Below are positions 8,174-64,000 of a stretch of DNA of 64,000 nt, piece by piece (the stretch's first letter is position 1; every line of letters begins with the position of its first letter). A program made the translations under genes and the position numbers. The stretch covers positions 9,082 to 73,081 of the forward strand of contig JACOXG010000004.1 in NCBI GenBank assembly GCA_016176405.1, read 5' to 3'. The notes beneath the pieces are model-generated. The model searched no databases and was not told the origin of the DNA. It worked only from the letters and a program-made list of their open reading frames with translations. The stretch is from Candidatus Daviesbacteria bacterium (GTDB taxonomy: Bacteria; Patescibacteriota; Microgenomatia; Daviesbacterales; UBA10151).

Positions 8174-8800
8174 CTATTGAAATCGCCTTATTACCCCTGT
8201 ACATTTGCCTTGAATTTTTAAAGATTCCGGATCATCTACATAGATTGGGTTCATGGTAGCATTGGCTGGTTCTAACCTAATCCTATTTGGCTCACGGAAA
8301 AATCTTTTTAAGGTGGCCAGACCATTGTCCAAAAGGGCCACCACAATATCTCCGTCATTGGCAATATTTTGCTCCTCAATGATGACAAAGTCTCCATCTA
8401 AAATTCCATCCTCAATCATGGAATCTCCTTTAACTTGTAAAACATATGATCTTTTTTTACCAGAAACCATGGAGGGTGAAACCTTGACTGTGGCATCAGG
8501 ATCTGTGTAGGTCATAATAGGCTGGCCCGCTGCTATAAATCCAAGAATGGGGAGTTCTACGCCTTGTAGAGCTGAGGAGATTTTTTGATCCAATACCTCA
8601 ATACCTCTGACAGCTCCTTCAAATCTTTTGATCACCCCTTTGGCAGATAATGCCTGTAAATGTTCATGAACTGTAGCTAAAGAAGATACTCCAATTGCCT
8701 CAGCGATCTCGCCCAAAGTAGGGGAATAACCATATTTATCAATATATTGTTTAATAAAATCTAAAATCTGTTTTTGCCGGCGGTATAAGGTGATAGGCAT
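8174..8800 (-). CDS. lexA: LexA repressor (SOS regulator; S24 peptidase)
   Basis: N-terminal winged-helix (LTxRQKQILDFI..GYSPTLGEIA), Ala-Gly cleavage-site region, S24 motifs VKGDSM and KR. Confidence 0.9.
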   Translation of the reverse strand: MPITLYRRQKQILDFIKQYIDKYGYSPTLGEIAEAIGVSSLATVHEHLQALSAKGVIKRFEGAVRGIEVLDQKISSALQGVELPILGFIAAGQPIMTYTDPDATVKVSPSMVSGKKRSYVLQVKGDSMIEDGILDGDFVIIEEQNIANDGDIVVALLDNGLATLKRFFREPNRIRLEPANATMNPIYVDDPESLKIQGKCTGVIRRFQ

Positions 8801-8882
8801 ACTATAACAATATCAAATATAACCCGAAACTGTCAACTGAGACAAACTATATCATTTTATTTTCTGTTATACTAAATATACA

Positions 8883-10433
8883 GTGAAACTGTCCATTAAA
8901 TTTGCTGTAATTATTTTTTTCTCTCTGCTGATTACCACCACCTGGTCCAATTTTTTAATCTTTCCTATCATTAATTCATTTATTAGTTCCAGACCAGTTG
9001 ATGACCCGCTGCTTTTGGGATTACTTGATTTAGCCTTGCTGCTCATTTTGGTAGTCGTACCAATGTCTTTGATGACCTATTTTTTACTTTCAAGGATAGT
9101 TATCAAACCGATTTCTTCATTTACTAAAATTGCCAAAATTATTGCCAGCGGCAATTTAGGAACTAGGTTAAAAATTTCTTCCAGAGATGAGATTGGAGAG
9201 TTAGGTATGCATATAAACACCATTATTGAACATCTGGTCAAAGCTTTCCAAAATATGGCTTATTCCTTAAAAGATGAGCGGTTAAAGGAAAGACAGCTGG
9301 CTGAGAGTTTGGAGCAGCTTAGGAAAGAGAAAGCTAAAGATGATGCCCTTCTTTCTAGTATAGGTGATGGGGTGATTGCCATAGATAAAAACCATCGGAT
9401 TATCCTTTTTAACAATGCAGCTAGTCAACTGACAGGATTTGGATTAAGTGAGGTTTTTAGCCTTCCATATCCAAATATTTTAAGAATTGTCAATGAAAAA
9501 GACCAAACTCCAGCAGAAGATTTTATAGGGTTGGTTTTATCAGGAGGAAATAATAAAAAACAAGAACATCTGGCCATTTTAACCAAAGATGGACGGGAGA
9601 TCCCCATCTCATATTCTTTGGGAGTTATTTATGACAGCGACAGGAGGGTGAATGGGGTGGTGGTGGTTTTAAGAGATATTACTCACGAAAGACAACTGGA
9701 TAAAATGAAAGATGAATTTGTCTCCATTGCCTCTCACGAACTGAGAACCCCTATGTCTGCCATCAAAAATTTAATGTCCATGATTTTTGAGGGAGATTTT
9801 GGGGAGGTTAATGAGCAGCTGAAGGACCCTTTAAAAGATGTAGCCATATCAACAGAGCGGCTAATTCAGTTGGTTAATGATATGTTGGATGTGTCCAGGC
9901 TGGAAACAGGTAGACTTAAAATTGTTTTAGAAGATGCTCCTTTGGCGGGACTTGTAGATGAGATAGTTAAGCTGATGCAATCTTTGGCTCAAGAAACAGG
10001 CAATCATATTTCGGTGGGATCAATTGATCAGAGTATGGTGAGAACCGATGTTAGTAAATTTAAAGAAATTTTGTCTAATTTAATAGGTAATGCCCTTAAA
10101 TTTACAGATAAAGGGCAAATATCAATTTCTACCAAAAGACAAGGTAGCTATATTTTTGTGTCTGTCTCAGATACAGGGATTGGGATTGCCGAAGAAGATA
10201 AGGCAAAACTGTTTGGTAAGTTTTCCCAAATTGGCACAGGGGCTTTAGTCAGGCCACCTGGTACAGGTTTAGGGCTCTATATTTCTCGTGAATTTGCCAG
10301 AAAAATGGGTGGAGATCTTTGGCTGGAGAGTTCTGGGGAAGGAAAGGGGAGTACTTTTACTTTTTCTGTGCCAGTGGCAGATCAGGCTTCTCAACAATCT
10401 GTAATTGAAGATACCAGTTTTATTCAAGCATAA
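8883..10433 (+). CDS. Sensor histidine kinase (TM, HAMP, PAS, HisKA, HATPase_c); GTG start
   Basis: H-box FVSIASHELRTPMSAI; N/G1/G2 boxes (LIGNALKFT; DTGIGI; GTGLGL); two N-terminal TM segments. Confidence 0.85.
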   Translation: MKLSIKFAVIIFFSLLITTTWSNFLIFPIINSFISSRPVDDPLLLGLLDLALLLILVVVPMSLMTYFLLSRIVIKPISSFTKIAKIIASGNLGTRLKISSRDEIGELGMHINTIIEHLVKAFQNMAYSLKDERLKERQLAESLEQLRKEKAKDDALLSSIGDGVIAIDKNHRIILFNNAASQLTGFGLSEVFSLPYPNILRIVNEKDQTPAEDFIGLVLSGGNNKKQEHLAILTKDGREIPISYSLGVIYDSDRRVNGVVVVLRDITHERQLDKMKDEFVSIASHELRTPMSAIKNLMSMIFEGDFGEVNEQLKDPLKDVAISTERLIQLVNDMLDVSRLETGRLKIVLEDAPLAGLVDEIVKLMQSLAQETGNHISVGSIDQSMVRTDVSKFKEILSNLIGNALKFTDKGQISISTKRQGSYIFVSVSDTGIGIAEEDKAKLFGKFSQIGTGALVRPPGTGLGLYISREFARKMGGDLWLESSGEGKGSTFTFSVPVADQASQQSVIEDTSFIQA

Positions 10434-20656: not shown

Positions 20657-21297
20657 GCTAAGAATTCCTCTATTTGTGCTTGAGAGATACCAAGAAGCCT
20701 CAGATCTTTTAGGTCTTTTGGTCTGGGAGGTGCAATGTGTAGAGGTGTACTATGTAAATCAACTGATTTACTAAATGTTAATGCTAGAGCATCAAGAATA
20801 TAGACTGGTCTTCCATTAAATTGTACTGGGGTTGAATGACTAAAAAGAATCCTAATATTAGGTTCACTACCAGGAATTCTACGTGATTCGAGCCAGCGTT
20901 TTGCGCTTTTGGAAGGGGTTCCTGCAAATTTTTTCTCTGTCTCACTATCTTCGCTTCGAAGTACTAAATCTACATCCTCTGGAATTTGTCTTGTAGGTAT
21001 TAATAAATGTACCGCTACCCCACCTTCTATAAGGTATTGTAATTGTCCATTTTCAACTTGTGGAAAAATAGAAATTAAAAGATCTAGAATTTTATCCCAG
21101 GAGGGTTGAGGATTTTCCCTATATAATGCTTCCAATGAAGGATGCCTTGGATAGACTATTATTGGTGGGAGTTCTTTCATAAGTTGAATTATACAATAAT
21201 TCATGCATTTTCTTCGGGTCTTCTTAGTGGTAAAATGGAATTTTGTCCCAACGTCATTCCTGCGAATGCTCGCTTCGCGAAGCGAGCAGGAATCCAA
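20641..21297 (-). CDS. Hypothetical protein, possible nucleotidyltransferase-fold (GG...DVDLV); annotated N-terminus is probably repeat-derived
   Basis: IEGGVAVHLL...EDVDLVL motif; first 30 codons are the reverse-strand translation of palindromic element B, so the real start is probably MNYCII (about 21204). Confidence 0.4.
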   Translation of the reverse strand: MDSCSLREASIRRNDVGTKFHFTTKKTRRKCMNYCIIQLMKELPPIIVYPRHPSLEALYRENPQPSWDKILDLLISIFPQVENGQLQYLIEGGVAVHLLIPTRQIPEDVDLVLRSEDSETEKKFAGTPSKSAKRWLESRRIPGSEPNIRILFSHSTPVQFNGRPVYILDALALTFSKSVDLHSTPLHIAPPRPKDLKDLRLLGISQAQIEEFLAEFTI

Positions 21298-21345
21298 TTA
21301 ATAAAATCACGTTCAGAATTGGATCCCCGCCTACGCGGGGATGAC
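21253..21345. repeat. Palindromic element family B (two hairpins: cattcctgc..gcaggaatg and atccccgc-cta-gcggggat) with an extra nested palindrome (gctcgcttcgcgaagcgagc), 18 bp upstream of the uvrB start
   Basis: Near-identical copy in dinB (63114-63188) and a shorter inverted copy in tkt (46931-46987); translated on the plus strand it gives VIPAN...AGIQ...ELDPRLRGDD, a motif widespread in other bacteria. Confidence 0.8.
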
Positions 21346-21362
21346 GAAAGGAAGAATATTTT

Positions 21363-23375
21363 ATGGCAAAGTTTATGATAGTTTCTGACTTTAAACCTAC
21401 TGGGGATCAGCCACAGGCTATTGAGAAGCTGGTGAGTGGATTAAATAATAATGAGAAACATCAAGTTTTGCTTGGTGTGACAGGTTCTGGAAAAACTTTT
21501 ACCATGGCCAATGTGATCCAAAAAGTCCAAAGGCCTACCTTAGTTATTTCTCATAACAAAACTCTTGCAGGGCAGCTGGCTCAAGAATTCAGGTCCCTTT
21601 TTCCCAACAATGCCGTGGAATATTTCGTTTCATACTATGATTATTACCAGCCCGAGGCTTATGTGCCTCAATCAGATACTTATATAGAAAAAGAGACAGA
21701 AATTAATGAGGAAATTGAAAAATTAAGGCTTTCCACTACTACTTCTTTGATGACCCGAAAAGATGTGATTGTGGTGGCCTCAGTATCCTGTATCTATAAC
21801 TTAGGTTCTCCTGTTGAATATGGCGGAGCTATTTTGGAGCTTAAAGAAGGGGTAAGATCTGGATTCCAATCCATTTTGAAGATGTTACAGAAAATGTATT
21901 ACTTGCGGAATGATTTAGATTTTAGAAGATCTACTTATAGAGTTAGAGGTGATACATTGGATATTTATCCTTCATACGCAGATTCTGCTGTTAGAGTAGA
22001 GTTTTTGGGGGACAAGATTGAAAGAGTATCTCATCTTGATCCTTTAACTGGAACAGTTACACCTACTTCCCAAACTTTGACTATTTTTCCTGCCAAACAC
22101 TACATTACTTCTGAGGCCAGATTTGAAGGAGCTTTAAAACAGATTCAGGAAGATTTGGTGGCCAGATTAAAACAGCTTAGGAAACAGGGAAAACTGTTGG
22201 AAGCTCAAAGATTAGAGCAAAGAACTTATTATGATCTGGAAATGATCAAAGAGTTTGGATATTGTAATGGAATTGAGAATTATTCCAGGTATTTTGATGG
22301 AAGAGCTCCAGGTGAGTCACCTTTTACTTTAATGGAATATTTTCCTAAGGATTTTTTACTAATTATTGATGAATCACACATTACTCTTCCTCAAATTAGG
22401 GGTATGTATAATGGTGACAGATCCAGAAAAGAAACCTTGGTTGAGTTTGGATTTAGGCTTCCCTCAGCTTTAGATAATAGACCGCTAAAATACGAGGAAT
22501 TTCAAAGGAAAATAAATCAAGCTATCTATGTTTCAGCCACTCCTGATGAGTATGAATTGAGTTTGGCTGGGGCTCACCTCCGAGGTGAGGGCAAGGTGAC
22601 ATCTGGCACACACCTCGGAGGTGTGGTGGAACAACTGGTCAGGCCAACAGGGATCGTAGATCCACAAATTTCTGTTAGAGGAACCAAAGGACAAATTGAT
22701 GATGTGATCAAAGAGGTAGAAAAACGCGTGGAACGTGGAGAGCGAGTCTTGATCACTACACTTACCAAAAGAATGGCAGAGGATCTGACTGACTATTTGA
22801 AAGAGAAAGGAATTAAGGTGAACTATTTACATTCAGATATTGAGACATTAAAAAGGTCTGATATTTTACAATCTTTAAGATTAGGGGAATTTGATGTGAT
22901 TGTGGGAATTAATCTTTTAAGAGAAGGTTTAGATTTACCAGAAGTAACTTTAGTCATAATCTTAGATGCTGATAAAGAAGGATTTTTAAGATCAAAAACC
23001 TCACTTATACAAACCATGGGCAGAGCTGCTAGAAATATTGGAGGAGAGGTAATTATGTATGCAGATAATGTGACAAAGTCTATGAAAGCTGCTATAGAGG
23101 AGGTGGATAGAAGAAGACAATACCAGGAGGAATATAATAAAAAACATAAAATAAAACCTAGAAGTATTGAGAAAGCTTTAAGGGAAAGGTTAATTGAGCA
23201 AGTTGAAGAGTTAGAAGAGCAATTGGGTAAAAAAGAGTTAAGAGTGGAGGATATTCCACCAAAAGAAAGAGATAAAATGTTAAGAAATTTAGAAACTCAA
23301 ATGAAACAAGCAGCAGAACTTTTGGATTTTGAGGAAGCAGCAAGACTTAGGGATCAAATTAAGGAGCTAAGTTAG
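21363..23375 (+). CDS. uvrB: Excinuclease ABC subunit B (UvrB), carrying an in-frame 18-aa insertion from a palindromic repeat
   Basis: Walker A GVTGSGKTFT, helicase motifs, beta-hairpin region, C-terminal UvrBC coiled-coil domain (EEAARLRDQIKEL); insertion [18 protein letters not shown] between YELSLAG and VEQLVRPTG. Confidence 0.95.
   Translation: MAKFMIVSDFKPTGDQPQAIEKLVSGLNNNEKHQVLLGVTGSGKTFTMANVIQKVQRPTLVISHNKTLAGQLAQEFRSLFPNNAVEYFVSYYDYYQPEAYVPQSDTYIEKETEINEEIEKLRLSTTTSLMTRKDVIVVASVSCIYNLGSPVEYGGAILELKEGVRSGFQSILKMLQKMYYLRNDLDFRRSTYRVRGDTLDIYPSYADSAVRVEFLGDKIERVSHLDPLTGTVTPTSQTLTIFPAKHYITSEARFEGALKQIQEDLVARLKQLRKQGKLLEAQRLEQRTYYDLEMIKEFGYCNGIENYSRYFDGRAPGESPFTLMEYFPKDFLLIIDESHITLPQIRGMYNGDRSRKETLVEFGFRLPSALDNRPLKYEEFQRKINQAIYVSATPDEYELSLAGAHLRGEGKVTSGTHLGGVVEQLVRPTGIVDPQISVRGTKGQIDDVIKEVEKRVERGERVLITTLTKRMAEDLTDYLKEKGIKVNYLHSDIETLKRSDILQSLRLGEFDVIVGINLLREGLDLPEVTLVIILDADKEGFLRSKTSLIQTMGRAARNIGGEVIMYADNVTKSMKAAIEEVDRRRQYQEEYNKKHKIKPRSIEKALRERLIEQVEELEEQLGKKELRVEDIPPKERDKMLRNLETQMKQAAELLDFEEAARLRDQIKELS
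22575..22623. repeat. REPIN-like element family A (cacctcCgaggtg - 23 bp - cacctcGgaggtg) inserted in-frame in uvrB
   Basis: Two 13-bp palindromes in inverted orientation; same arms at 25176-25224 (uvrA), 63728-63777 (dinB) and related palindromes flanking the HuH transposase gene at 48785-48809/49524-49543. Confidence 0.85.
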
Positions 23376-23825: not shown

Positions 23826-25532
23826 TTGACAAAATTATTATCAAAGGTGCTCGTGAGCACAATCTTGGCTTTTGATACCCTATATGCTGAGGGGCAGAGA
23901 AGATATGTTGAATCCCTTTCTGCTTATGCCAGGCAGTTTTTGGGGGTCATGGATAAGCCTGATGTAGATTTAATTGAAGGATTATCTCCTGCTATTTCTA
24001 TTGATCAAAAAGGAGTTTCACACAATCCCAGATCTACTGTTGGAACAACTACTGAAATTTATGATTACTTAAGGCTACTTTTTGCCAGAATTGGCCATCC
24101 TCATTGTCCTATTTGTGGCAGGGAAATTAGTAGGATGAGTGTGGAACAGATTGTGGAAATAGTCATCAGTAGTCAGTCATCAGCTATCAGCAAGAAGGGG
24201 AGAAGAATCATGGTTTTGGCTCCTGTTGTTAAAGATAGAAAAGGGGAGTACTCCTCGCTTTTTGAAGATTTAAGAAAGAAAGGTTTTTCTAAAGCCAGAG
24301 TTGATGGGCAGATTAGGGATTTGAGTGAGGATTTTGTATTGATTAAAACTAATAAGCACACTATTGATGTCGTAGTTGATCGGCTCGTGTTAGAGTCTAG
24401 AGTCAAGAATCTAGAATCTAGTGAGACACAATATAGACTCTCGACTCTAGCGACTAGACTCTCACAAAGTATTGAAACAGCAGTTAAATTAGGTGAAGGA
24501 TCTGTAATAGTTTCTGATGTTTTAGATGCTTCTTTAGAATTTCCCCAGAGCCCTAAAAAAATGGAAGATCACCTATACTCTGAAAGATTTGCCTGTCCTG
24601 TTGACAATATAGCTCTATCTGAGGTTGAGCCCAGATTATTTTCTTTTAATTCCCCCCACGGAGCTTGTCCAACATGCTCCGGATTAGGTTCTCTTTTAGA
24701 GATTGATCCGGAAATGGTCTTAAACCCAATTTTATCCATTGCTGAGGGTGGAATTTTACCCTGGCAAAAATTAGCCACTCATGAAACCTGGTTTTCCAGG
24801 CTAATTGAGGCAGTGGGTAAGGAATATGGCTTTGACTTAAACACCAGATTAGGACAGCTTTCAGATGAGGCTAAAAAAGTGCTTCTACATGGTTCAGGAG
24901 ACGATGAATTCAGAGTGGAAGGTAGAAATAGACAAGGCAGATGGACCTCATTTTATTCTGAATTTCAAGGCTTAGTTCCATATTTAAAGCAAAGATACCA
25001 AGAATCTGAATCAGATTATGTCAGAGCAGAAATTGAAAAATATATGTATAAAGAAACATGTCCCAAATGTAAAGGGGCTAGGCTTAAAGATGAGGCTTTA
25101 TCAATCACCATTGATGGTTTAAATATTGCTGAGGTGACCACCCAATCTATCAACGAAGCTTTAGATTGGATTGCTCACCTCCGAGGTGAGGGCAAGGTGA
25201 TGTCTGGATCACACCTCGGAGGTGTACTCTCGGAACGAGAATGGCAAATTGCCACCTCAATTGTCAAAGAAATTAAAGCTAGATCACAGTTTTTGATTGA
25301 TGTAGGTTTAGATTATTTAACTTTAGATAGACCCTCTATGACTTTGGCAGGAGGGGAGTCACAAAGGATCAGATTGGCCTCTCAAATTGGTTCAGGGTTA
25401 TCTGGAGTTTTATATGTTTTAGATGAACCCTCAATTGGTTTACATCAAAGGGATAATGCCAGGTTGATTGATACTTTAAAGAGACTGCGGGATTTGGGAC
25501 GGAGGGAAAATTGTCGATACTGGAACCCCTGA
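23826..25532 (+). CDS. uvrA: Excinuclease ABC subunit A (UvrA), N-terminal/central segment; gene appears disrupted
   Basis: [26 protein letters not shown], zinc-finger Cys pairs, ABC signature [12 protein letters not shown]; a separate upstream start [16 protein letters not shown] (23819) is in another frame and the NBD-I Walker A segment is absent; contains three repeat-derived in-frame insertions. Confidence 0.85.
24391..24463. repeat. Palindromic element family C (tagagtctagagtc...agactctcgactctagcgactagactct) inserted in-frame in uvrA
   Basis: Related copy at 52335-52401 (intergenic in the MacAB-like operon); encodes [24 protein letters not shown]. Confidence 0.7.
25176..25224. repeat. 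REPIN-like element family A inserted in-frame in uvrA (encodes [18 protein letters not shown])
   Basis: Same 13-bp inverted palindromic arms as the uvrB copy; spacer differs at a few positions. Confidence 0.85.
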
Positions 25533-26659: not shown

Positions 26660-28591
26660 ATGTTTAAGAAGCTTTTCAGCCAAGTTATGAGTTATTGGTT
26701 ATGGGTTATGAGTGTCTTATTGTCTTTACTCATAACTCATAACTCATCACTCATCACTCCTGTCTATGCTGCTGAGGAGTTTGCTACCTCATATGAGGTG
26801 GTTTATGACATTACCGAAGATGGAATAACCACAGTTACTGAAAAAATTACCTTAATAAATTTAACTTCTCAATATTACGCCAACCAATTTAAGCTGACCA
26901 TTGGTGCCACCGAGGTTTTTGATGTCAAAGCCTCTGATGATGCTGGTGTCATGGAAGTCAATACCAAAAAGGAAGAAACTAGCACCTCTATTGAGGTTAA
27001 GTTTAACCAACAGGTGGCAGGTCTAGGTAAACAATTGCCCTGGACTTTACAATTTAAATCCAAAGATTTTGCCGAAAAAGTGGGAAAGGTTTGGGAAGTG
27101 AGAGCTCCCAAAATTTCCTCCAGCACCAATTTGGAGTCTTATAATCTGACCATTGCAGTTCCCCAAAGCTTTGGTGAACCAACCCTGATTACACCTAACC
27201 CCAAAAGCCAAACCAGCTCCACAGGTAGGCTATTTTTAACCTTTACCGAGGACCAGATTACCCAATCAGGAGTTTCTGCCAATTTTGGTACTATCCAGCT
27301 TTTTGATTTTGATCTGACCTATCATCTGGAAAATGACAATTTAGTACCCATCTTAACCAATATTGCTCTGCCTCCTGATACTGCTTTCCAGGATGTCATT
27401 TTTCAAAGGATTGAACCTAAGCCAATTAATGTCTCGGTTGATGAGGACGGCAATTATTTGGCCTGGTATCGACTAACCAGAGGCCAAAAATTGGATATTC
27501 AAGTAGTTGGTTCAGCCAAATTATATAGTAGTTCCAAAGTTAAAAATCCTATCTTAAGCGATGATCTCAAAAGAAAATATACCCGAGCAGACAAATATTG
27601 GGAAAGGGATAATCCCCAAATAATCTCCTTACTGACACAAATCCTGGGTGACACCCCTCCTGCCACTACATCAGAAAAGGCCAAATTAATTTTTCGCTAT
27701 GTGGTCAATAGCTTAAAATATGATCAATCCAGACTGACTGACGATATTGAAAGATATGGAGCAGTGACTGCTTTAAATAATCCTACTTCTGCGGTTTGTA
27801 TGGAATTTACTGATCTGTTTATTGCCCTGTCCCGGGCAGCTGGCATTCCTGCCAGGGAGCTCAATGGTTTTGCTTACTCAGCTAACCCAGCCTTAAGACC
27901 ACTTTCTCTAACCAAAGATATTTTGCACTCCTGGCCAGAATATTTCGATGAGAGAGTCGGTTGGGTCATGGTAGACCCCACCTGGGAAAATACCACTGGT
28001 GGGGTAGATTATTTTTCCAAACTTGATTTAAATCATTTTGTTTTTGTCACCAAAGGTTTATCTTCCATTCAACCGATTCCAGCCGGCTCTTATAAATACA
28101 GTGGGCAAGACAGCCGAGATGTCAAGGTGGTTTTATCTGATAAGGATTTTTTGGGGAAGGCCCAGATTAATGTGGAGGTTGAAGCTGCGAACCCCCTTCT
28201 GTCAGGTTTTGGAGGCAAAATAAAAGTTAAAATCACCAATCTAGGCAATGCTCTTTTTTCTTCTACCCCTTTTTCTTTGTCGAGTTCCCAAATATCTATT
28301 CAGTCCCACCAATCCTCAACCACTGGCCCTATACCTGCTTTTGGGACTGCTGAATTTGAATATAATGTCAAAACCAAATCATTATTTGATTCTTTTGATG
28401 ATAATTTAGTGGCTTTAGTCGGTGGGCAGAAATTTGAAAACCCCATCAGTGTTAGGCCTTTTATTCTCTTTCAAAGAGTACCCCTAATTATTTTCTCCAG
28501 CTTGATAGCTTTGATGGTGGTCCTTTATTTAACCATTCTTTTGGTCTTTACCTTAAGAAAAAGACACCTTTGGATATTTAGACCCAAATGA
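26660..28591 (+). CDS. Secreted transglutaminase-like (Cys-His-Asp) domain protein with C-terminal TM anchor
   Basis: Transglutaminase-core motifs AVCMEFTDLFIALSRAAGIPAR...HSWPEYF...VMVDPTW; signal peptide encoded by a heptamer inverted repeat. Confidence 0.7.
   Translation: MFKKLFSQVMSYWLWVMSVLLSLLITHNSSLITPVYAAEEFATSYEVVYDITEDGITTVTEKITLINLTSQYYANQFKLTIGATEVFDVKASDDAGVMEVNTKKEETSTSIEVKFNQQVAGLGKQLPWTLQFKSKDFAEKVGKVWEVRAPKISSSTNLESYNLTIAVPQSFGEPTLITPNPKSQTSSTGRLFLTFTEDQITQSGVSANFGTIQLFDFDLTYHLENDNLVPILTNIALPPDTAFQDVIFQRIEPKPINVSVDEDGNYLAWYRLTRGQKLDIQVVGSAKLYSSSKVKNPILSDDLKRKYTRADKYWERDNPQIISLLTQILGDTPPATTSEKAKLIFRYVVNSLKYDQSRLTDDIERYGAVTALNNPTSAVCMEFTDLFIALSRAAGIPARELNGFAYSANPALRPLSLTKDILHSWPEYFDERVGWVMVDPTWENTTGGVDYFSKLDLNHFVFVTKGLSSIQPIPAGSYKYSGQDSRDVKVVLSDKDFLGKAQINVEVEAANPLLSGFGGKIKVKITNLGNALFSSTPFSLSSSQISIQSHQSSTTGPIPAFGTAEFEYNVKTKSLFDSFDDNLVALVGGQKFENPISVRPFILFQRVPLIIFSSLIALMVVLYLTILLVFTLRKRHLWIFRPK
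26684..26759. repeat. Inverted arrays of heptamer-like direct repeats (gttatgag... / ...ctcataac) encoding the signal peptide of the transglutaminase-like protein
   Basis: Left arm gttatgagttattggttatgggttatgagtg versus right arm ctcataactcataactcatcactcatcactc. Confidence 0.7.
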
Positions 28592-29883
28592 TCCCATCTT
28601 TTATTGATAAATCCAATATTCCACATAGAAGTGGTGTCTATATTTTTAAGGATAATAGGCAAAGTGTTATTTATGTGGGAAAAGCGATTGATTTATATCA
28701 TCGAGTAGCCTCATATTTTGGCAATCATAGTGGTGATGTAAAACTAACAAATTTGGTAAGTAACATTTCTTCAGTGGAAACCATTATCGTGGAATATGAA
28801 CTGGAAGCCTTAATTTTGGAGGCCAACTTAATCAAAAAATACCTACCTCCTTTTAATGTTAGTTTAAAAGATGATAAAGATTATCTTTATATTGGTATTA
28901 CCAAAGAAGATTTTCCCAAAGTCATTACATTAAGAAAACAAGATTTAAAAAGGGTTAAGAAGTTTTTTGGCCCCTTTCCTTCTGCGAGGACCGTTAGAGA
29001 CACACTTAAGCTGTTGCGTCGGGTCTTCCCTTGGTGTGCCAATCCACCTGGATTAAGAAATAGATACTCAAGACCTTGTTTCTATTACCATATAGGTTTA
29101 TGTCCTGGTGTATGTGCTGGATTAATTACTAAACAAGATTACCAGAAAACTATTAGAAGATTTGCCTTCTTTTTGGAGGGGAAAAAAGAGGAGCTGGTAG
29201 AGGAGTTATTTAGAGAAATGGCTGAAGCAGCTAAAGAAGAAAAGTTTGAAGAAGCTTCTAAAGTCAAGAAAATGCTTGATGGTATCAATTATCTTCTCCA
29301 GCCAAATAGAGCTCAGATTTATTTGGAAAACCCTAATTTTTTACAGGAAGAAAACAAACAAGCTCTAGTTAAACTTCAGAAGGATCTTAATTTGGAAAAA
29401 TTACCGGAAAGGATTGAGGCTTATGATATTTCTAATATTCAAGGTAAAGACGCAGTAGGATCAATGGTAGTTTTAACAAATGGTGAGATTGATAAATCTC
29501 AGTACAGAAAATTCAGAATCAGAGTGGCCGGAAGACCAAATGATGTAGGTATGCATAAAGAGATGATCAGACGTCGTTTAAACCATCCAGAATGGCCAAT
29601 GCCTGACTTAATCTTAGTAGATGGAGGAAGGGGACAGGCAAGAGCTGTAAAATTACAAATTACAAATTACAAATTGAATAACCTGCCTTTGGCAGGACAA
29701 ATTCCAGTTCTCGGCTTGGCCAAAAGAATGGAGTGGTTGTACCCACCTGAGGGTGAAGTGATCAAACTTTCCAAAAGAAGTTTAGCATTGAAACTATTGC
29801 AAAAAATTAGAGATGAAGCTCACCGTTTTGCTGTGACCTTCCATAGAAAGTTACACCAAAAATCGGTTATACTGGGATTGTAA
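28588..29883 (+). CDS. uvrC: Excinuclease ABC subunit C (UvrC), short form lacking the C-terminal HhH region
   Basis: GIY-YIG motif SGVYIFKDNRQSVIYVGKA, UvrB-interaction region, RNase-H-like domain ending in IRDEAHRFAVTFHRK; only 431 aa. Confidence 0.8.
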   Translation: MIPSFIDKSNIPHRSGVYIFKDNRQSVIYVGKAIDLYHRVASYFGNHSGDVKLTNLVSNISSVETIIVEYELEALILEANLIKKYLPPFNVSLKDDKDYLYIGITKEDFPKVITLRKQDLKRVKKFFGPFPSARTVRDTLKLLRRVFPWCANPPGLRNRYSRPCFYYHIGLCPGVCAGLITKQDYQKTIRRFAFFLEGKKEELVEELFREMAEAAKEEKFEEASKVKKMLDGINYLLQPNRAQIYLENPNFLQEENKQALVKLQKDLNLEKLPERIEAYDISNIQGKDAVGSMVVLTNGEIDKSQYRKFRIRVAGRPNDVGMHKEMIRRRLNHPEWPMPDLILVDGGRGQARAVKLQITNYKLNNLPLAGQIPVLGLAKRMEWLYPPEGEVIKLSKRSLALKLLQKIRDEAHRFAVTFHRKLHQKSVILGL

Positions 29884-38912: not shown

Positions 38913-39986
38913 ATGCCCCACATTGCCCTAATTCCACTCCTTATAGTTATAACGTTAACCACAGGATTACTAACGATAGGAGGTCTAAAAGTTGATAAAG
39001 TTTCTGATACAAAAATTTCCAATCCACAAGTTTCTAGCTCACAAATAGAGGGAATTAAATCTGATCAAACAGAGCCTGAGAGGGTTTGTAAAATTATTTC
39101 AGGATTAAGATTTTGTTTTAAAAAACCTATCTCTCCAATCCGAACATCTTTTCCAGCTAAACCAAGGCCCTCTCCCAGCTCTTCACCCACTACTACACCA
39201 AGCAGTTCACCAACTTCCACACCCAAACCTACTTCAACCCCTACCAGTTCGCCAACAGCCACTCCTAATCCTCAAACAGGTGGGCCAGCTGCTATTGGGA
39301 TGACTGTTGAATCTTCTAATTTAAGTTGGTGGAATGAGAGAGCCTCTTCATCAGATTTAATATTTGGCAGTATTGGTTTGCTTAAATCTGTACCATCTGC
39401 CAAAGGAAATAAAGTTTTATTTGTTGATCCTAACAATCCTACCTCTGGTATGGATACTGCTAAAGCTAATGGCTGGATAGTCACTTCAAATATAGAGGAG
39501 GTTGATGTTAATTATGTGATCTCTAAAGAAAAAGAACATTATCAATTAGCCAAGGATCGGGGACTCACCTTTGTTTTTGGACCAATGGGACTTCAGCTTA
39601 AAGATCATTATGCTGATCAAGATTATGCCCTTTTAAAAAATACTGATATTATGGTTTATCAAACTCAAGCTTTTCAGGAAGATTCCAGAACGTTGGGAGT
39701 CTCGGATTCTAACAGTTATGTTTCAGCTTACAGTAGTAAAGTGAGGGATTTAATTGGAAAAATTAAACCATATATTGTCCAAAAGAAAGTTTGGGTCCAA
39801 GTTTCTGCTAATCCACCTCGGAGTAGGTGTATAAATGCGGATAGACTCATCCAATACATTGATTCTATTAGCAGTGGAAGCAATGCTGCTGATGCCGTAG
39901 TGATTTTTGTCTCTCCTCAATATGATTCTCAGTGTTCGGAAAAAAGAATAGATGTTGCCAAAAAAGTGGTTGATCATTATAGATAA
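38913..39986 (+). CDS. Secreted hypothetical protein with Pro/Ser/Thr-rich linker
   Basis: N-terminal TM/signal; low-complexity PSPSSSPTTTPSSSPTSTPKPTSTP stretch; globular C-terminal domain. Confidence 0.45.
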   Translation: MPHIALIPLLIVITLTTGLLTIGGLKVDKVSDTKISNPQVSSSQIEGIKSDQTEPERVCKIISGLRFCFKKPISPIRTSFPAKPRPSPSSSPTTTPSSSPTSTPKPTSTPTSSPTATPNPQTGGPAAIGMTVESSNLSWWNERASSSDLIFGSIGLLKSVPSAKGNKVLFVDPNNPTSGMDTAKANGWIVTSNIEEVDVNYVISKEKEHYQLAKDRGLTFVFGPMGLQLKDHYADQDYALLKNTDIMVYQTQAFQEDSRTLGVSDSNSYVSAYSSKVRDLIGKIKPYIVQKKVWVQVSANPPRSRCINADRLIQYIDSISSGSNAADAVVIFVSPQYDSQCSEKRIDVAKKVVDHYR

Positions 39987-46070: not shown

Positions 46071-47567
46071 TTTCGGACAATGAATAATCTAAGAGAGCTA
46101 GCTAAGCTAGTTAGGTACTTTATCTTAATTTCCACCACTGAGGCAGGGTCTGGGCATCCTACCTCATCTCTATCCGCCACCGACTTGATGGTGGCTCTTT
46201 TTTTTGGAGGATTTCTTCATTTTGATTTGAAAAATATAGATAATGCCAATAATGATCGTTTAATTTTCTCTAAAGGTCACGCCTCCCCTCTTTTCTACTC
46301 AATTTATGGGGCAGCCGGTGCAGTTTCTGAAAAGGAGCTTCTGACTCTGAGAAAGTTTGACAGTCCATTAGAGGGGCATCCTTCCACGGAGTTTCCCTTT
46401 ACCGAGGTTCCCACAGGATCTTTGGGTCAAGGTTTATCTGTTGGAGTTGGTATGGCTATTAATGCTAAATATCTGGATAAATTGGGATATAAAACTTTTG
46501 TACTATTGGGTGATTCTGAGATGGCAGAAGGATCTGTTTGGGAGGCAATTCAGCTGGCAGCATTTTACAAATTGGACAATTTGGTGGCAATTTTGGATGT
46601 GAACAGATTGGGACAAAGAGGGCAGACTATGTATGGACATGATGTTAAAGCATATCAGCAAAGAGTTTCCAGTTTTAGTTGGAAAACTATTGTAATTGAT
46701 GGACATAATTTGGCTCAGATTAAAAGGGCGTATCAGCGAGCCTTAAAGACTAAAAATGTCCCTACTATGATTATTGCTAAAACTATTAAAGGTAAAGGAT
46801 TTTCAATTTGGGAGGATAAAGATGGTTGGCATGGGAAGGCACTTCCTAAGGAGGATTTGGAAAGGGCTTTGAAGGAATTGGGTTATATAAATAAGAAACT
46901 TCGTGGAAAACTCAGCTTACCCACAAAGTCATCCCCGCTTTCGCGGGGATCCATAAATAATTGGATTCCTGCCTCCGCAGGAATGACAAACTATTCCCAA
47001 GGTGACATGGTGGCAACAAGAAAGGCCTATGGTAATGCTTTAGTAAGGCTTGCTCCCAAATATCCTGATATGGTGGTATTAGATGCCGAGGTGAATAACT
47101 CTACTTATTCAGAATTTTTTGCCCAAAAATTTCCCCAAAAATATTTTGAGATGTTTATTGCTGAACAAAATATGGTGGGAGTGGCTTTGGGACTTTCAAG
47201 GCGGGGCAAAATGCCTTTTATCTCCACCTTCGCCGCCTTTTTAACTAGAGCTTTCGATCAAATCAGAATGGCTCAGTATGCCAAAACTAATATTAAGTTT
47301 TGTGGTTCTCATGCAGGAGTTTCCATAGGGGAAGATGGGCCCTCTCAGATGGGATTAGAAGACATTGCCATGTTTAGGACAATTATGGGTAGTGTGGTGT
47401 TGTATCCTTCTGATGCTGTCTCTTGCGAAAAATTGGTGGAAGAGGCTGCAAAGCATTATGGCATGGTTTATATTAGAACCACCAGAAAAGATACACCTGT
47501 TATTTATTCTAATAATGAGCAATTCAAAGTGATCATGACCAGGTTACTATTTTGGGAGCAGGGATAA
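46062..47567 (+). CDS. tkt: Transketolase (N-terminal TPP-binding + pyrimidine-binding domains), with an in-frame repeat insertion and a 3' frameshift
   Basis: TPP motifs GSGHPTSSLS, GDSEMAEGSVWEA; 19-aa insertion SSPLSRGSINNWIPASAGM from palindromic element B; frame changes around 47527-47545 into ORF 47552-47896. Confidence 0.85.
   Translation: MIQFRTMNNLRELAKLVRYFILISTTEAGSGHPTSSLSATDLMVALFFGGFLHFDLKNIDNANNDRLIFSKGHASPLFYSIYGAAGAVSEKELLTLRKFDSPLEGHPSTEFPFTEVPTGSLGQGLSVGVGMAINAKYLDKLGYKTFVLLGDSEMAEGSVWEAIQLAAFYKLDNLVAILDVNRLGQRGQTMYGHDVKAYQQRVSSFSWKTIVIDGHNLAQIKRAYQRALKTKNVPTMIIAKTIKGKGFSIWEDKDGWHGKALPKEDLERALKELGYINKKLRGKLSLPTKSSPLSRGSINNWIPASAGMTNYSQGDMVATRKAYGNALVRLAPKYPDMVVLDAEVNNSTYSEFFAQKFPQKYFEMFIAEQNMVGVALGLSRRGKMPFISTFAAFLTRAFDQIRMAQYAKTNIKFCGSHAGVSIGEDGPSQMGLEDIAMFRTIMGSVVLYPSDAVSCEKLVEEAAKHYGMVYIRTTRKDTPVIYSNNEQFKVIMTRLLFWEQG
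46931..46987. repeat. Palindromic element family B (short form, inverted orientation) inserted in-frame in tkt
   Basis: atccccgc-tttc-gcggggat hairpin plus cattcctgc-ctcc-gcaggaatg hairpin; 57 bp = 19 codons. Confidence 0.8.
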
Positions 47568-48756: not shown

Positions 48757-48784
48757 GGATTTTTAAATAAGTATTAGTTGCTAT

Positions 48785-48809
48785 CATTCCTACCTCGGAG
48801 GTAGGAATG
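48785..48809. repeat. REP-like perfect palindrome (cattcctacctc-g-gaggtaggaatg) 3' of tal and flanking the HuH transposase gene
   Basis: 25-bp palindrome whose core acctcNgaggt matches family A arms; followed by a T-run, so it may also terminate tal. Confidence 0.8.
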
Positions 48810-48840
48810 AATGTGCACGTAGGGTTTTATCCAGTATTTT

Positions 48841-49518
48841 TTATTCAAGAAGCTTATGTTTAATTAATTCAAGCTTTCTAGCATAATCTACTTGATCTAG
48901 TACAAATTGTTCATATCTTTTGGAATTTTTAAATAATGAGATAACAACTTCCTTATTGCAAATTTTATCTTCTTGTAATTCAAGATAGGATACATATGAT
49001 GACCAAGGATAGTCTCTTAAGTTTTTAACTAAATAGGAAGCAATTGGGTTTAGGTGTATATATCGTGATAAATGTATCAATTGTTCATCTGATTCCACTC
49101 TGACAGCCTTAAATTGTCCTTGGAAGAGTGGCCCAACGCGCTCATGACGTGTATTAAAGTACTTAGTATAGCTGTTAGAAACCTTATTAATGAATTCAGA
49201 GATTCCCTTTTCTTCGAGCTGCCGCAACATAAAGTGATAATGGTTAGGCATTAGGCAATAGCAAATTATTTCCACAATTCTTTTGTTCTTCTCATACTCA
49301 AAATCCTTAAAACGATTTAACTGAGAAAATTGAGGTTTGGGTCCCTGGAATTGGTAATAGTAGATCGTCTCTAAGAATCGATTGTAATCTCTTCGATCAT
49401 CAAATACCGGCATCTTTGCCACTCCACGATTAAAAACATGGTAGACTTGGCCAGTGGCCAATGGAATTATTCGATAGGGCATAAATTCTACTAAACCACA
49501 TATTACCCAAGGTGTCAA
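48841..49518 (-). mobile_element. IS200/IS605-type HuH tyrosine transposase, probable REP-associated tyrosine transposase (RAYT)
   Basis: HuH motif LMPNHYHFM, catalytic Tyr region LSRYIHLNPIASYLV (compare E. coli RAYT YIYINPVKHGWV); flanked on both sides by REP-like palindromes of the same family dispersed in the window. Confidence 0.75.
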
Positions 49519-49523
49519 TACAT

Positions 49524-49543
49524 TTCCACCTCGGAGGTAGGAG
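49524..49543. repeat. REP-like palindrome (ttccacctc-g-gaggtaggag) immediately 5' of the HuH transposase gene
   Basis: Matches the left-flank palindrome and family A arms. Confidence 0.8.
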
Positions 49544-52327: not shown

Positions 52328-52334
52328 AGTTAGT

Positions 52335-52401
52335 GACTAGAGTCGAGAGTCAAGAGTCTAGATTTGTTTTCCTAGACTCTAGATTCTAGCGACTAGACTC
52401 T
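52335..52401. repeat. Palindromic element family C between the MacB-like permease and ATPase genes
   Basis: gactagagtcgagagtcaagagtctag ... ctagactctagattctagcgactagactct; related to the insertion in uvrA. Confidence 0.7.
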
Positions 52402-53063
52402 ATTCTCCCATCCTTCAGCCTAATAATCCTCTTGGCATGTTTGGCAATATTTGCTTCATGTGTAATCATAATAATAGTTTTGCCTTCCCAATTTAGTTTT
52501 TGGAAAATTTTGATAATTTCCTCACCCGATTTAGTATCCAAATTTCCGGTTGGCTCATCTGCTAGAATAAGTTCAGGATTATTAACTAAGGCTCTGGCAA
52601 TGGCCACTCTTTGTTGCTGACCACCTGAGAGTTGATTAGGATGAGATTGCAGCTTGTCTGCCAGCCCCACCTCATCTAATGCCTGTTTTGCTCTTTGCAG
52701 TCTCTCTGGTTTGCTCACTCCCGCATAAATCAAAGGTATGGACACATTATCCAAGGCAGAGGTTCTGGGTAAAAGATTGAAAGATTGAAAAACAAAGCCA
52801 ATTTTTTGATTTCTAATTTCTGCTAATCTTTCTTCTTGGAGATGAGCTGTGTTTTGTCCATCAAGTTCATATATTCCTGAAGTTGGATGATCTAACAGCC
52901 CAATAATATTCATTAAAGTGGATTTGCCGGAACCGGAAGCGCCTATGATGGCTATGTATTCACCTTTTTTGACCACTAAATTAATACCTGCTAGGGCTTT
53001 CAGAGAAACTTCACCGCTGACATAGATTTTGTTTATATTGGTTAGTTTAACTAGGGTGCTCAT
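52386..53063 (-). CDS. ABC transporter ATP-binding protein (MacB/LolD-type)
   Basis: Walker A GASGSGKST, signature LSGGQQQRVAIA, Walker B ILADEPTGNLD, H-loop ITHE. Confidence 0.9.
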   Translation of the reverse strand: MSTLVKLTNINKIYVSGEVSLKALAGINLVVKKGEYIAIIGASGSGKSTLMNIIGLLDHPTSGIYELDGQNTAHLQEERLAEIRNQKIGFVFQSFNLLPRTSALDNVSIPLIYAGVSKPERLQRAKQALDEVGLADKLQSHPNQLSGGQQQRVAIARALVNNPELILADEPTGNLDTKSGEEIIKIFQKLNWEGKTIIMITHEANIAKHAKRIIRLKDGRIESSR

Positions 53064-62398: not shown

Positions 62399-63113
62399 CA
62401 ACTCTCAGAACCTATTAAAGTTTGGGTATTTTTTGAAAATGGAACTTTAAAGCCTCATTTATTTTTCTGGAATAAAAGACAAATTAAAATAGAAAAAATT
62501 AATTTAGTTCATACCACTAAAAATGGCTCTTCTCCTGCTTATCATTTTTCAGTTTCCTCTAGAGGGAATTTTTACAGACTAGGATTTGATTTATTCACTT
62601 TAAAATGGTTTCTGGAGGCTGTGGAAGAGGGATAGCTGGTTGCTCCTGGGAGCTATGGGTTGATTCTGAAGAAGCAATTTCTCCAGGAAGTGGTCCGTGA
62701 AATATAGAACTACCAAGGGGACACGGCCTCCAAGAGACATCATTAGGTGCGTGGGTTTGGGGTAATTCCTTCTCTACCATGACACGTACAAATTAAAATA
62801 ACTGTTAAATTATGTCAAGAGGGATTTATGAGAACCATTTTACACATTGATTTTAACTCATACTTTGCCTCTGTTGAACAGCAGGCAAATCCACACCTTC
62901 GGGGTAAACCTATTGGGGTAACTGGAGGAGATAGACTAAAGAGGACAGTGATTGGGGCAGCCTCAATTGAGGCCAAAAAGTTTGGGGTAAAAACCAGGAG
63001 ATTCTGATAAGTATTTAGAAACAACCAAGAAATTTATAAATATTTTAAAGGACTTTAGCCCAAATTTGGAGGTGTTCTCTATAGATGAGTGCTTTTTGGA
63101 ATTACCCTTTTCT

Positions 63114-63188
63114 GTCATTCCTGCGAATGCAGGAATCCAATTAAATGAATCACGTTCGGAATTGGATCCCCGCCTACGCGGGGATGAC
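63114..63188. repeat. Palindromic element family B inserted in-frame in dinB (encodes VIPANAGIQLNESRSELDPRLRGDD)
   Basis: Near-identical to the 21253-21345 copy minus its nested palindrome. Confidence 0.85.
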
Positions 63189-63727
63189 TTGGTAAAAGTT
63201 GCCCAAGATATTAAATCTCGTATCCGCTCTGAAATTGGAGAATGGATCAGATGCTCTATAGGTATTTCATATAACAAGCTCATGGCCAAGTTGGCTGGGT
63301 CTTTACAAAAACCGGATGGACTGGTGGTTATTCCAAACCAGAAAGAGGCTATCAAAGTGTTGGATAAGATAGAATTGGATGAAATTTGTGGGATCGGCGG
63401 AAGGATTAAAAAAAGATTAAATAATATGGGAGTGTTCGGTTTTAAACAGCTAAGATATGTACCTCTAGAGGCTCTGCTGGCCTCATTTAAGAGCTATGGA
63501 CAGATTTTATATAACATGGCTCGGGGAATAGATTATTCACCCATCATTCCCTTTTATGAAAAAGGAGAAGTAAAAAGTGTGGGGCATAGACATACCATTG
63601 ATCACGATACAAATGACCCAGCAGAAATAAAGCAAATTCTTTTAAAACTTACAGAACTGGTGGCCAGAAGACTGCGGGCTAAAAAAATGGTAGGGAAAAC
63701 TGTCCATTGTTGGTATCGTCAGGCATT

Positions 63728-63777
63728 CCACCTCCGAGGTGAACCCAGTATTTCAACTAGTGCACACCTCGGAGGTG
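63728..63777. repeat. REPIN-like element family A inserted in-frame in dinB (encodes HLRGEPSISTSAHLGGV)
   Basis: ccacctcCgaggtg - 23 bp - cacctcGgaggtg. Confidence 0.85.
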
Positions 63778-64000
63778 TATTTTCGGGAGATGGGATGCAG
63801 ATGACTATCTCTTACAGCAATGATGGATTGGCAATCTTCCATGCAGCCTGGAAAATTTTCCAGAAACTGTGGAATGAAGACAAGATTAGAATGGTTGGTG
63901 TATCCATATCTAACCTCAAATCCCAAAATCCTCAGAATCTATCATTACTTGAAGATTTTTTAACTCAGGAAAAAATTATTCAAACCATGGATAAAATTAA

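Follow-up and report, generated by a model that had tools for sequence, protein, structure and literature searches.

The closest described relatives of the element reported here are the REPIN-RAYT systems of Pseudomonas and of Escherichia coli (TnpA-REP, structure 4er8), in which short repetitive extragenic palindromic (REP) sequences in inverted orientation fold into a single hairpin, and in which the gene of a Y1/HUH enzyme, the REP-associated tyrosine transposase (RAYT), is flanked by the same REPs. The element in question, called family A, is a palindromic doublet located in the Y-family DNA polymerase gene dinB of a Candidatus Daviesbacteria bacterium, at positions 63729-63777 (+ strand) of a stretch of 64,000 nucleotides (contig JACOXG010000004.1, positions 9,082 to 73,081), which is referred to as the window and to which all coordinates apply. 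It shares with the REPIN-RAYT systems the inverted palindromes, the single hairpin, the lack of a target duplication and a Y1/HUH gene that is flanked by the same palindromes, is syntenic in relatives and encodes a protein whose predicted fold is closest to 4er8. Unlike them, the doublet is very small (49 nt, with 13-nt arms) and carries no GTAG tag, its copies are mostly intragenic and in frame (72 of 85, and all three in the window) rather than extragenic, the host belongs to the Patescibacteria, or candidate phyla radiation (CPR), and the sequence match of the enzyme lies below the cutoff of the curated RAYT model.

Other described elements reside inside genes. The Rickettsia palindromic elements (RPEs) resemble those of the window in that they are selfish palindromes inserted in frame into surface loops of unrelated housekeeping proteins of a small genome, which pass to orthologues by inheritance and decay afterwards. 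At about 100-150 bp, elements of the RPE-1 type are longer and are not known to have a transposase, whereas a candidate transposase for family A is found here. Since the Rickettsia work, in-frame palindromic inserts in genes have been a known phenomenon, although their way of moving is unclear; REPINs, for their part, are usually treated as extragenic. RPE-6 and RPE-4 are assigned in a published study to the CGTC class of REPs (PMC3733652), which family B, a second palindromic family in dinB, also fits. In the same study, uvrA, uvrB, polA and error-prone polymerase genes were reported to contain REP dimers that code for about 20-30 aa (PMC3733652). In contrast to these intragenic GTAG/CGTC REPs, the phylum is new for the class in our case, two classes occur in one gene, and family A is RAYT-linked without having the GTAG tag. 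Finally, IS200/IS605 elements and their miniature derivatives (PATEs) have in common with family A a Y1 HUH transposase, subterminal hairpins recognised on single-stranded DNA (ssDNA) and the lack of a target duplication. Unlike in that group, the gene in the window is syntenic and was seen on a single contig, and its product exceeds IS200 TnpA in length, has a helical extension at the C-terminus and is modelled as structurally nearer to TnpA-REP than to the TnpA proteins of IS608 and ISDra2.

A literature search for the arm sequence (CACCTCCGAGGTG) and for the peptides HLRGE, HLGGV, IPAFAGMT and IPAKAGIQ returned nothing relevant, and no RAYT or REPIN linked with Patescibacteria was found in the literature searched. 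REP and REPIN-RAYT systems, intragenic REPs and RPE-like inserts are known biology, and it is the phylum that is new relative to this literature. In the explanation that we consider probable, family A is a REPIN-like REP doublet with its cognate RAYT in the window, family B is an independent CGTC dimer, and the clustering of inserts in uvrA, uvrB and dinB most likely reflects tolerance or weak selection, possibly with an insertion bias.

Family-A doublets in the window and in other genomes

The dinB doublet reads FHLRGEPSISTSAHLGGV. Its two palindromic arms of 13 nt, CACCTCCGAGGTG at 63729-63741 and CACCTCGGAGGTG at 63765-63777, are separated by a spacer of 23 nt (layout CACCTCCGAGGTG-N23-CACCTCGGAGGTG) and are 100% complementary, and their inversion is shown by the loop triplets CCG and CGG. 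The original prediction had described an element at 63728-63777 as the third of its family in the window; the element is present but starts one base later, and the two other doublets are indeed found in uvrB (22575-22623, + strand) and uvrA (25176-25224, + strand). When the 13-mer was searched with at most two mismatches, 16 strand-matches were obtained in the window, against 0.28 expected from shuffled sequences. They correspond to the three doublets, to two sites beside the open reading frame (ORF) 48841-49518 and to one site at 39814. As ssDNA, each of the three doublets folds into a single hairpin with a 13-bp stem (dG of -14.7 to -19.5 kcal/mol, z of -4.2 to -5.0), the dinB copy being at -14.7 kcal/mol with z of -5.0.

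All three copies are read in the frame of their host as (A/F)HLRGE...HLGGV, and the translations HLRGEPSISTSAHLGGV and VIPANAGIQLNESRSELDPRLRGDD proposed earlier for the dinB inserts were right in the dinB frame. By sequence comparison, the dinB copy was confirmed as a true in-frame insertion with respect to orthologues and solved structures. The site has 17 codons more than the empty-site orthologues, which read WYRSADFKGSGMQ, and it falls on a gap in the alignment to the solved Pol IV 7yll, at the position of a beta-hairpin loop in the little-finger domain. Similarly, the uvrB copy lies in the linker preceding VEQLVRPTG and corresponds to a 16-aa gap relative to UvrB 3uwx_B, and the uvrA copy to a gap of 14 residues relative to Geobacillus UvrA 2r6f. 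Orthologous copies are present at the uvrA site in loci L055 and L072, and at the dinB site in loci L044 and L015.

Exact family-A doublets were detected in species-representative genomes at at least 80 GTDB loci, with 82 doublets among the matches listed, and most of the listed matches come from Microgenomates (Daviesbacteria, Curtissbacteria, Roizmanbacteria and Levybacteria). A number of metagenome-assembled genomes (MAGs) entitled 'uncultured Gammaproteobacteria' (L010, L017, L054-056, L066, L072, L078 and others, from binchicken co-assemblies) have a GC content of about 38%, and the DNA of L055 and L072 is 70-80% identical to the window across uvrA and uvrB. From these sequences, their titles look taxonomically wrong and the MAGs look like mislabelled CPR genomes.

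The spacer measures 23 nt in 45 copies, 17 nt in 16 and 15 nt in five, other lengths being also found. The spacer-23 subfamily has the consensus gCT-CACCTCCGAGGTG-AAGyyAAGGTGACACCTGGATCA-CACCTCGGAGGTG-TA, whose spacer is common across hosts. Seventy-two of 85 doublets are located inside ORFs of at least 150 aa, where they are read as HLRG..HLGG (46 copies), TSEV..TSEV (24) or PPR (two). The spacer-23 consensus is open in one of its six frames, which is the frame observed. The uniform reading and orientation of family A are thus explained by selection, because the consensus is stop-free in that frame alone. Strand-specific insertion, which could likewise produce the bias in orientation (HLRGE 21 versus HLRGV 4), was considered and rejected in favour of this simpler account. 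A further candidate argument, that spacers equal to 2 modulo 3 (69 of 82) were independent evidence of frame selection, was downgraded, since the length is common to a subfamily by descent and five of the ten distinct lengths qualify.

No direct repeat of 2-5 nt was found above chance at any boundary offset in the 85 doublets, and family A therefore lacks the target-site duplication that characterises DDE-type miniature inverted-repeat transposable elements. The doublet had no match (0) in viral contigs, which gives no sign of a phage vector. Compensated arm variants exist, for instance CACCCC-N-GGGGTG.

At the uvrB linker site, the spacer-23 subfamily is present in the window (22575-22623), and the spacer-17 subfamily, with the conserved spacer GTGTTGCGCCTGCGGCA, in Daviesbacteria STB_119 (L008, 4788-4830). 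Another host family likewise has different subfamilies at one site (spacer 23 in L010 versus spacer 15 in L060). These cases suggest re-insertion at, or replacement of, existing copies.

A RAYT-like gene flanked by family-A palindromes

The two matches beside ORF 48841-49518 frame the gene of a RAYT-like Y1/HUH transposase of 213 aa (48841-49482, - strand; PF01797), 14 kb from dinB. Its HUH motif (NHYHF) and its tyrosine motif (RYIHLNP) are both invariant among homologues, and the identical NCBI protein (P0121) is named 'transposase'. The sequence matches the NCBIfam model NF047646, 'REP-associated tyrosine transposase', with an E-value of 4e-17. An AlphaFold2 model of the protein (pLDDT 85.7, pTM 0.83) had as its top fold match 4er8_A, that is TnpA-REP bound to a REP hairpin (E 1.2e-6, TM-score 0.72 on the target), whereas the matches to IS608 and ISDra2 TnpA were at 3.5e-4 or worse.

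Upstream of this gene, 45-57 nt before the start codon, the palindrome TACCTCCGAGGTG (49527-49539, - strand) agrees with the family-A arm at 12 of 13 positions. Downstream, about 31 nt past the stop codon, TCATTCCTACCTC-C-GAGGTAGGAATGA (48784-48810, - strand) forms a 13-bp stem with z of -5.7. The family-A core ACCTCCGAGGT is present at both flanks, and, bar one, the only family-A matches outside the doublets are those adjoining the Y1_Tnp gene on its two sides. The same arrangement is seen in relatives. Orthologues with 73-76% identity, in three groups, have the same G6PD/6PGD neighbourhood and bear the family-A palindrome on both sides, about 57 nt before the ATG and about 30 nt past the stop (L161-167); in L165-167 the flanks are exactly CACCTCCGAGGTG on the 5' side and CACCTCGGAGGTG on the 3' side, which are the two arms of the doublet. 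Among 69 metagenomic loci with a homologue, 56 have a sequence of 11 nt or longer common to both flanks, where shuffled pairings gave 3.7 on average. These flank hairpins vary with the lineage, and those of the clade nearest to the window have CACCT-NNN-AGGTG stems. In addition, a RAYT homologue is encoded in five of the 80 listed loci, which had been picked only for their family-A doublet. The RAYT-like gene stands within a pentose-phosphate cluster (G6PD, tkt, tal, PGI) and its position is kept in orthologues; in the protein collection for this genome, the identical transposase was found on one contig only.

We infer the mobilisation of family A by this RAYT from the architecture of the locus, which is that of a REPtron/REPIN, and from the likeness to 4er8. 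By analogy with E. coli TnpA-REP and the TnpA proteins of IS200/IS605, the enzyme encoded at 48841-49482 (- strand) would recognise the folded hairpin on ssDNA, and would either move the doublet by cut and paste or copy it, with no duplication of the target. The copies would enter genes in the small, gene-dense genomes of CPR bacteria, and those that survive would be the ones with a frame-keeping length, a stop-free frame and a tolerant surface loop as their site, which would lead to the uniform HLRGE...HLGGV reading. The dinB copy would be an old one, common to other Daviesbacteria, that subsequently underwent neutral decay. Family B, which is of another class that is itself widespread, would have entered a second tolerant loop of dinB independently of family A.

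Several observations weigh against this explanation. The score of the transposase on NF047646 (62 bits) is under the curated cutoff of 80. The flank copies in the window differ from the arms by one or two outer bases (T/A for C/G), and both are in the same loop orientation. The doublet arms have no GTAG tag, unlike the RAYT-linked REPs described, and end in GGTGAG or GGTGTA; GGTAG is present only in the copies that flank the RAYT gene, inside the stem. Exact-arm doublets also occur in a few MAGs from outside the CPR (GC 0.46-0.70). Some homologues in genomes that contain family-A doublets are flanked by other palindromes (L049, L072, L055), which indicates that the pairing of enzyme and repeat is lineage-specific. 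Furthermore, transposition was not observed, and no presence/absence polymorphism was seen between near-identical strains. Finally, tolerance alone leaves unexplained the excess of repair genes among the hosts: about 10% of hosts are of the SOS type, against about 1% predicted from gene length, the latter being a rough estimate that was not computed.

The palindromes proper to four RAYT homologues were recorded as ACACACCTGGTGTGT (L049), CAACCTGAAAGGTTGA (L072), AAGGTCGGACCTT (L055) and GGTTCAACC (L074). The first of them translates as HTPGV, a motif that is found at the family-A site of DinB in several orthologues. This sequence link hints that other intragenic families may also have cognate RAYTs.

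In an uncultured CPR lineage, a repeat family resident in genes can thus be tied, by sequence and by architecture, to one particular RAYT-like enzyme that is apparently intact. With repeat and enzyme paired, a single protein and an oligonucleotide of 49 nt would be enough to test the mechanism in vitro.

Two palindromic families in the loops of dinB

The second element of dinB, family B, is a double hairpin at 63113-63188 (+ strand), with arms at 63114-63142 and 63160-63188; its first description, at 63114-63188, was accurate to within one base. It comes after the DE catalytic motif and has the layout TGTC-ATTCCTGC-GAAT-GCAGGAAT-CCA ... TGG-ATCCCCGC-CTAC-GCGGGGAT-GAC, in which a first 8-bp stem (ATTCCTGC) with a 4-nt loop and a CCA tail is followed by an inverted second unit with the stem ATCCCCGC. 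The whole folds into a three-way structure of -20.4 kcal/mol (z -4.8). With respect to the empty-site orthologues, which read EISKKPIKIAK, the site is longer by 25 codons. The published CGTC-1 class is defined by units that are tagged with CGTC or TGTC, have a stem of 8 bp beginning with AT, a loop of 4 nt and a CCA tail, and are arranged as head-to-head dimers (Di Nocera et al. 2013, PMC3733652); it includes the Neisseria dRS3 and the Rickettsia RPE-6 elements, and no dedicated transposase was reported for it in that study. Every one of these features is present in family B, the sequence of which fits a CGTC-type REP head-to-head heterodimer of this class. Thus, the proposal that a single gene hosts two unrelated palindromic families, the family-A doublet and the family-B dimer, was confirmed.

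Two other family-B dimers were found in the window. One is intragenic and in frame, in the transketolase gene (46928-46987, - strand; 60 nt, KSSPLSRGSINNWIPASAGMT). The other, whose ends are the canonical CGTC...GACG, is intergenic (21252-21346, + strand) and precedes the ATG of uvrB by 16 nt. In this dimer, a second hairpin, TGCTCGCTTCGCGAAGCGAGCA, is nested within the first loop, and its location is one where the 5' untranslated region of uvrB could be affected.

The state of both dinB sites was examined in 119 Daviesbacteria orthologues gathered by protein similarity (61-72% identity), which range in length from 370 to 485 aa. The family-A site is empty in eight of them, and contains an intact family-A doublet in 11, a degenerate one in 16, a single A-like arm in 25, family A in the TSEV frame in six, family B in two, the HTPGV/HNPGL family in seven and other sequences in 44. 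The family-B site is empty in 25 and is occupied by family A in four (not subdivided), by family B in eight, by VIA...LAMT in 16, by family C in four and by other sequences in 62. In L044 this second site is filled by a family-A doublet, and in L015 by a third insert that is unrelated and measures about 115 nt. Both sites are hypervariable loops and insertion hot spots for many palindromic families, so that a gene with two families is nothing unusual in this clade.

The family-A copy of dinB is old, vertically inherited and shared with other Daviesbacteria, and it is decaying. The decay of the arms over time among the DinB orthologues argues against a conserved function for the copy. Selection on the arms had been considered on the basis of their perfect conservation in L044 and L015 and was rejected, since these loci had been picked by an exact-arm search and the unbiased DinB set shows arm decay.

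The dinB gene itself extends from 62828 to 64000, with Pfam matches to IMS, IMS_HHH_1 and IMS_C, and is disrupted. A DNA alignment with two orthologous loci (L044 and L015) showed that 53 nt are missing at 62995/62996. Because of this deletion, the frame opened by the ATG at 62828 ends at a stop at 63007, leaving an N-terminal fragment of 59 aa (62828-63007, + strand), and the main body (IMS, IMS_HHH and IMS_C) is read in another frame (63006-64000, + strand) and continues past the end of the window. A public record that is 100% identical (P0001) gives the same truncated state, as a 336-aa remnant starting at TTG 63093 and named 'hypothetical protein HYS94_00990'. The earlier statement that both dinB inserts preserve the downstream frame is therefore valid in the historical sense, since intact orthologues contain the same insert, but it does not hold functionally for this gene, which is frameshifted upstream.

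Comparable lesions, relative to orthologues, were observed in uvrA, which has two frameshifting deletions, one of 77 nt at about 23866 that takes out the first Walker A motif and one of about 86 nt at 25498/25499, and in the transketolase gene, where a small frameshifting deletion lies near 47530. Palindromic elements are found 100-550 nt away from the deletion in three of the four disrupted genes. The frameshifts of dinB, uvrA and transketolase are either real pseudogenes or local mis-assemblies beside repeats. More generally, the inserts may seed local assembly errors or deletions in MAGs; they also inflate and diversify CPR proteins, and yield spurious 'hypothetical' peptides (VIPAxAGIQ, HLRGE).

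Clustering in DNA-damage genes and other palindromes

Pfam confirmed the window genes dinB, uvrA, uvrB, uvrC (28588-29883) and lexA (8174-8800, - strand; LexA_DNA_bind and Peptidase_S24), which bears out the placement of lexA in the original prediction; no link of lexA to the elements was found. About eight intragenic palindromic inserts were counted in the window: one in uvrB, two in uvrA, two in dinB and one each in the genes of transketolase, a transglutaminase-like protein and a DEAD-box helicase. Thus, the suggestion that inserts concentrate in genes of the LexA-regulon type holds for the window, where five of about eight lie in uvrA, uvrB and dinB, genes that cover about 10% of the sequence. 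In other genomes, the hosts span all functional classes.

This was seen in a survey of 68 host ORFs from other genomes, which matched 125 Pfam families and in which orthologous sites recur, so that the counts are not independent. The most frequent hosts are CCA-adding/poly(A) polymerases (four), followed by PurL, ATP-dependent DNA ligase, GT1 glycosyltransferases, SpoU methylases and GatA (three each), and by topoisomerase I, SecA, UvrD, class II aminoacyl-tRNA synthetases, the PolA 5'-3' exonuclease, DinB and UvrA (two each). UvrB was found once, as were ATP synthase gamma, M1 aminopeptidase, GAPDH, a release factor, L7/L12, Era, ArgRS, CarA, TsaD, FolD, aspartokinase and others. Repair and replication proteins account for 14 of 68 hosts (21%) and SOS-type proteins for seven of 68 (10%: UvrA two, UvrB one, DinB two, UvrD two), these shares being above the roughly estimated prediction from gene length. 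A repair-gene bias of the inserts is plausible, and would now be known in a fourth unrelated lineage; for intragenic GTAG and CGTC REPs, such a bias was reported in 2013 in Proteobacteria, Opitutus and Rickettsia, together with speculation on a mutator effect (PMC3733652).

The most likely explanation of the clustering in uvrA, uvrB and dinB is tolerance or weak selection in long repair proteins, possibly with some insertion bias, and not regulation by LexA. Among the alternatives, it is conceivable, although rather doubtful, that insertion or retention of the elements favours DNA-damage-response genes on mechanistic or adaptive grounds, which corresponds to the insertion targeting of the original prediction. 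The grounds could be the exposure of ssDNA in SOS genes that are heavily transcribed during damage, at a time when Y1 transposition is active, or selection for attenuated repair with a mutator effect. The share of the window inserts that fall in uvrA, uvrB and dinB, the repair and replication hosts elsewhere (UvrA, UvrB, UvrD, DinB, PolA, ATP-dependent ligase and topoisomerase I) and the published bias with its mutator speculation all point in this direction. On the other hand, 54 of the 68 hosts are unrelated housekeeping genes, orthologous inserts were counted several times in the tally, and uvrC, in the same window, has no insert. Furthermore, many families share the dinB sites as hot spots, and in numerous orthologues the sites are empty, a pattern that resembles tolerance rather than function.

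That the three repair-gene copies are due to chance, through insertion at random in a genome of which about 90% is coding, is an unlikely account, and somewhat more doubtful than the preceding one. The window has only three family-A copies, hosts elsewhere are of many kinds, and the functional category was chosen after the data had been seen. However, for three of three copies to land within about 10% of the sequence has a probability of about 1e-3, and both the independent sample and the earlier paper (PMC3733652) point in the same direction. Still less probable is a stronger form of the mobile-element account, in which a RAYT-REPIN system of Daviesbacteria and Microgenomates lives in coding genes, with small doublets that mostly have a frame-keeping length, are read in their single stop-free frame and are recycled at the same protein loops, and truly prefers repair and replication genes, either because insertion takes place on ssDNA exposed by damage or because weakened repair is beneficial to the element or to the host. 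In that form, it would explain mechanistically, through an enzyme that can be named, how palindromic elements of the Rickettsia type spread into genes, which has long been without explanation.

A regulatory role is very improbable. According to this proposal, the hairpins would be LexA-linked or other cis-regulatory signals hitch-hiking in SOS genes, such as RNA hairpins or mimics of the Shine-Dalgarno and anti-Shine-Dalgarno sequences. The family-A arms contain GGAGGTG and CACCTCC, which correspond to a perfect Shine-Dalgarno sequence and to the 3' end of 16S rRNA; the hairpin would therefore pair the one with the other inside mRNAs, a pairing that may be coincidental. The position of the family-B dimer before the uvrB start codon is also in favour of it, and the stable folds hold for RNA too. 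Nevertheless, the element is present in dozens of non-SOS genes and its arms decay in orthologues. An Rfam scan of the window, which yielded five tRNAs and no other match, also counts against this reading.

The original prediction had further envisaged a LexA-box-like motif shared by the loci that carry the elements, and none was found upstream of lexA, uvrA, uvrB and dinB. The E. coli, Cheo, alpha and cyanobacterial patterns were searched in these four regions and none is shared, which is a weak negative since the CPR operator has not been identified. There was also no palindrome common to at least three of the four regions, and a CTGT/ACAG pattern searched across the window gave nothing shared (one LexA pattern was used with a spacing of 14 instead of 12). 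The family-A element itself has no resemblance to a LexA box. A LexA-regulon or regulatory role of the inserts is thus not supported. The palindrome CTGTTATACTAAATATACAG (CTGT-N12-ACAG), at 8864-8883 in the divergent intergenic region between lexA and a histidine-kinase gene, is a possible operator; it is not conserved in the orthologous region of L008 and is absent upstream of uvrA, uvrB and dinB.

Equally improbable is a local origin of the inserts, by template switching or slippage in flexible loops, or their retention as a selected His-containing HLRG/HLGG peptide module: the very diverse hairpin-like sequences at both dinB sites and the compensated arm variants could be read in this way, but identical 13-mers in unrelated genes, in three frames (HLRG, TSEV and PPR) and in the non-coding RAYT flanks, a spacer consensus common across hosts, and a peptide that is not conserved where the DNA arms decay largely refute it, as far as DNA sequences shared across frames and hosts can tell.

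Beside families A and B, a third palindromic family, of the AGAGTCTAGAGTC type, is present inside uvrA (24390-24465) and between the genes of a MacB-like permease and an ABC ATPase (52331-52402). It is also found at the family-B site of dinB in some orthologues, where it reads ESSRKSLESS. Finally, a long imperfect palindrome (AGTTATGAGTTATTGG... / ...ACTCATAACTCAT) occupies positions 26677-26771, within the first 40 codons or so of the transglutaminase-like protein, and could be either another repeat family or the coding sequence of a signal or transmembrane segment.

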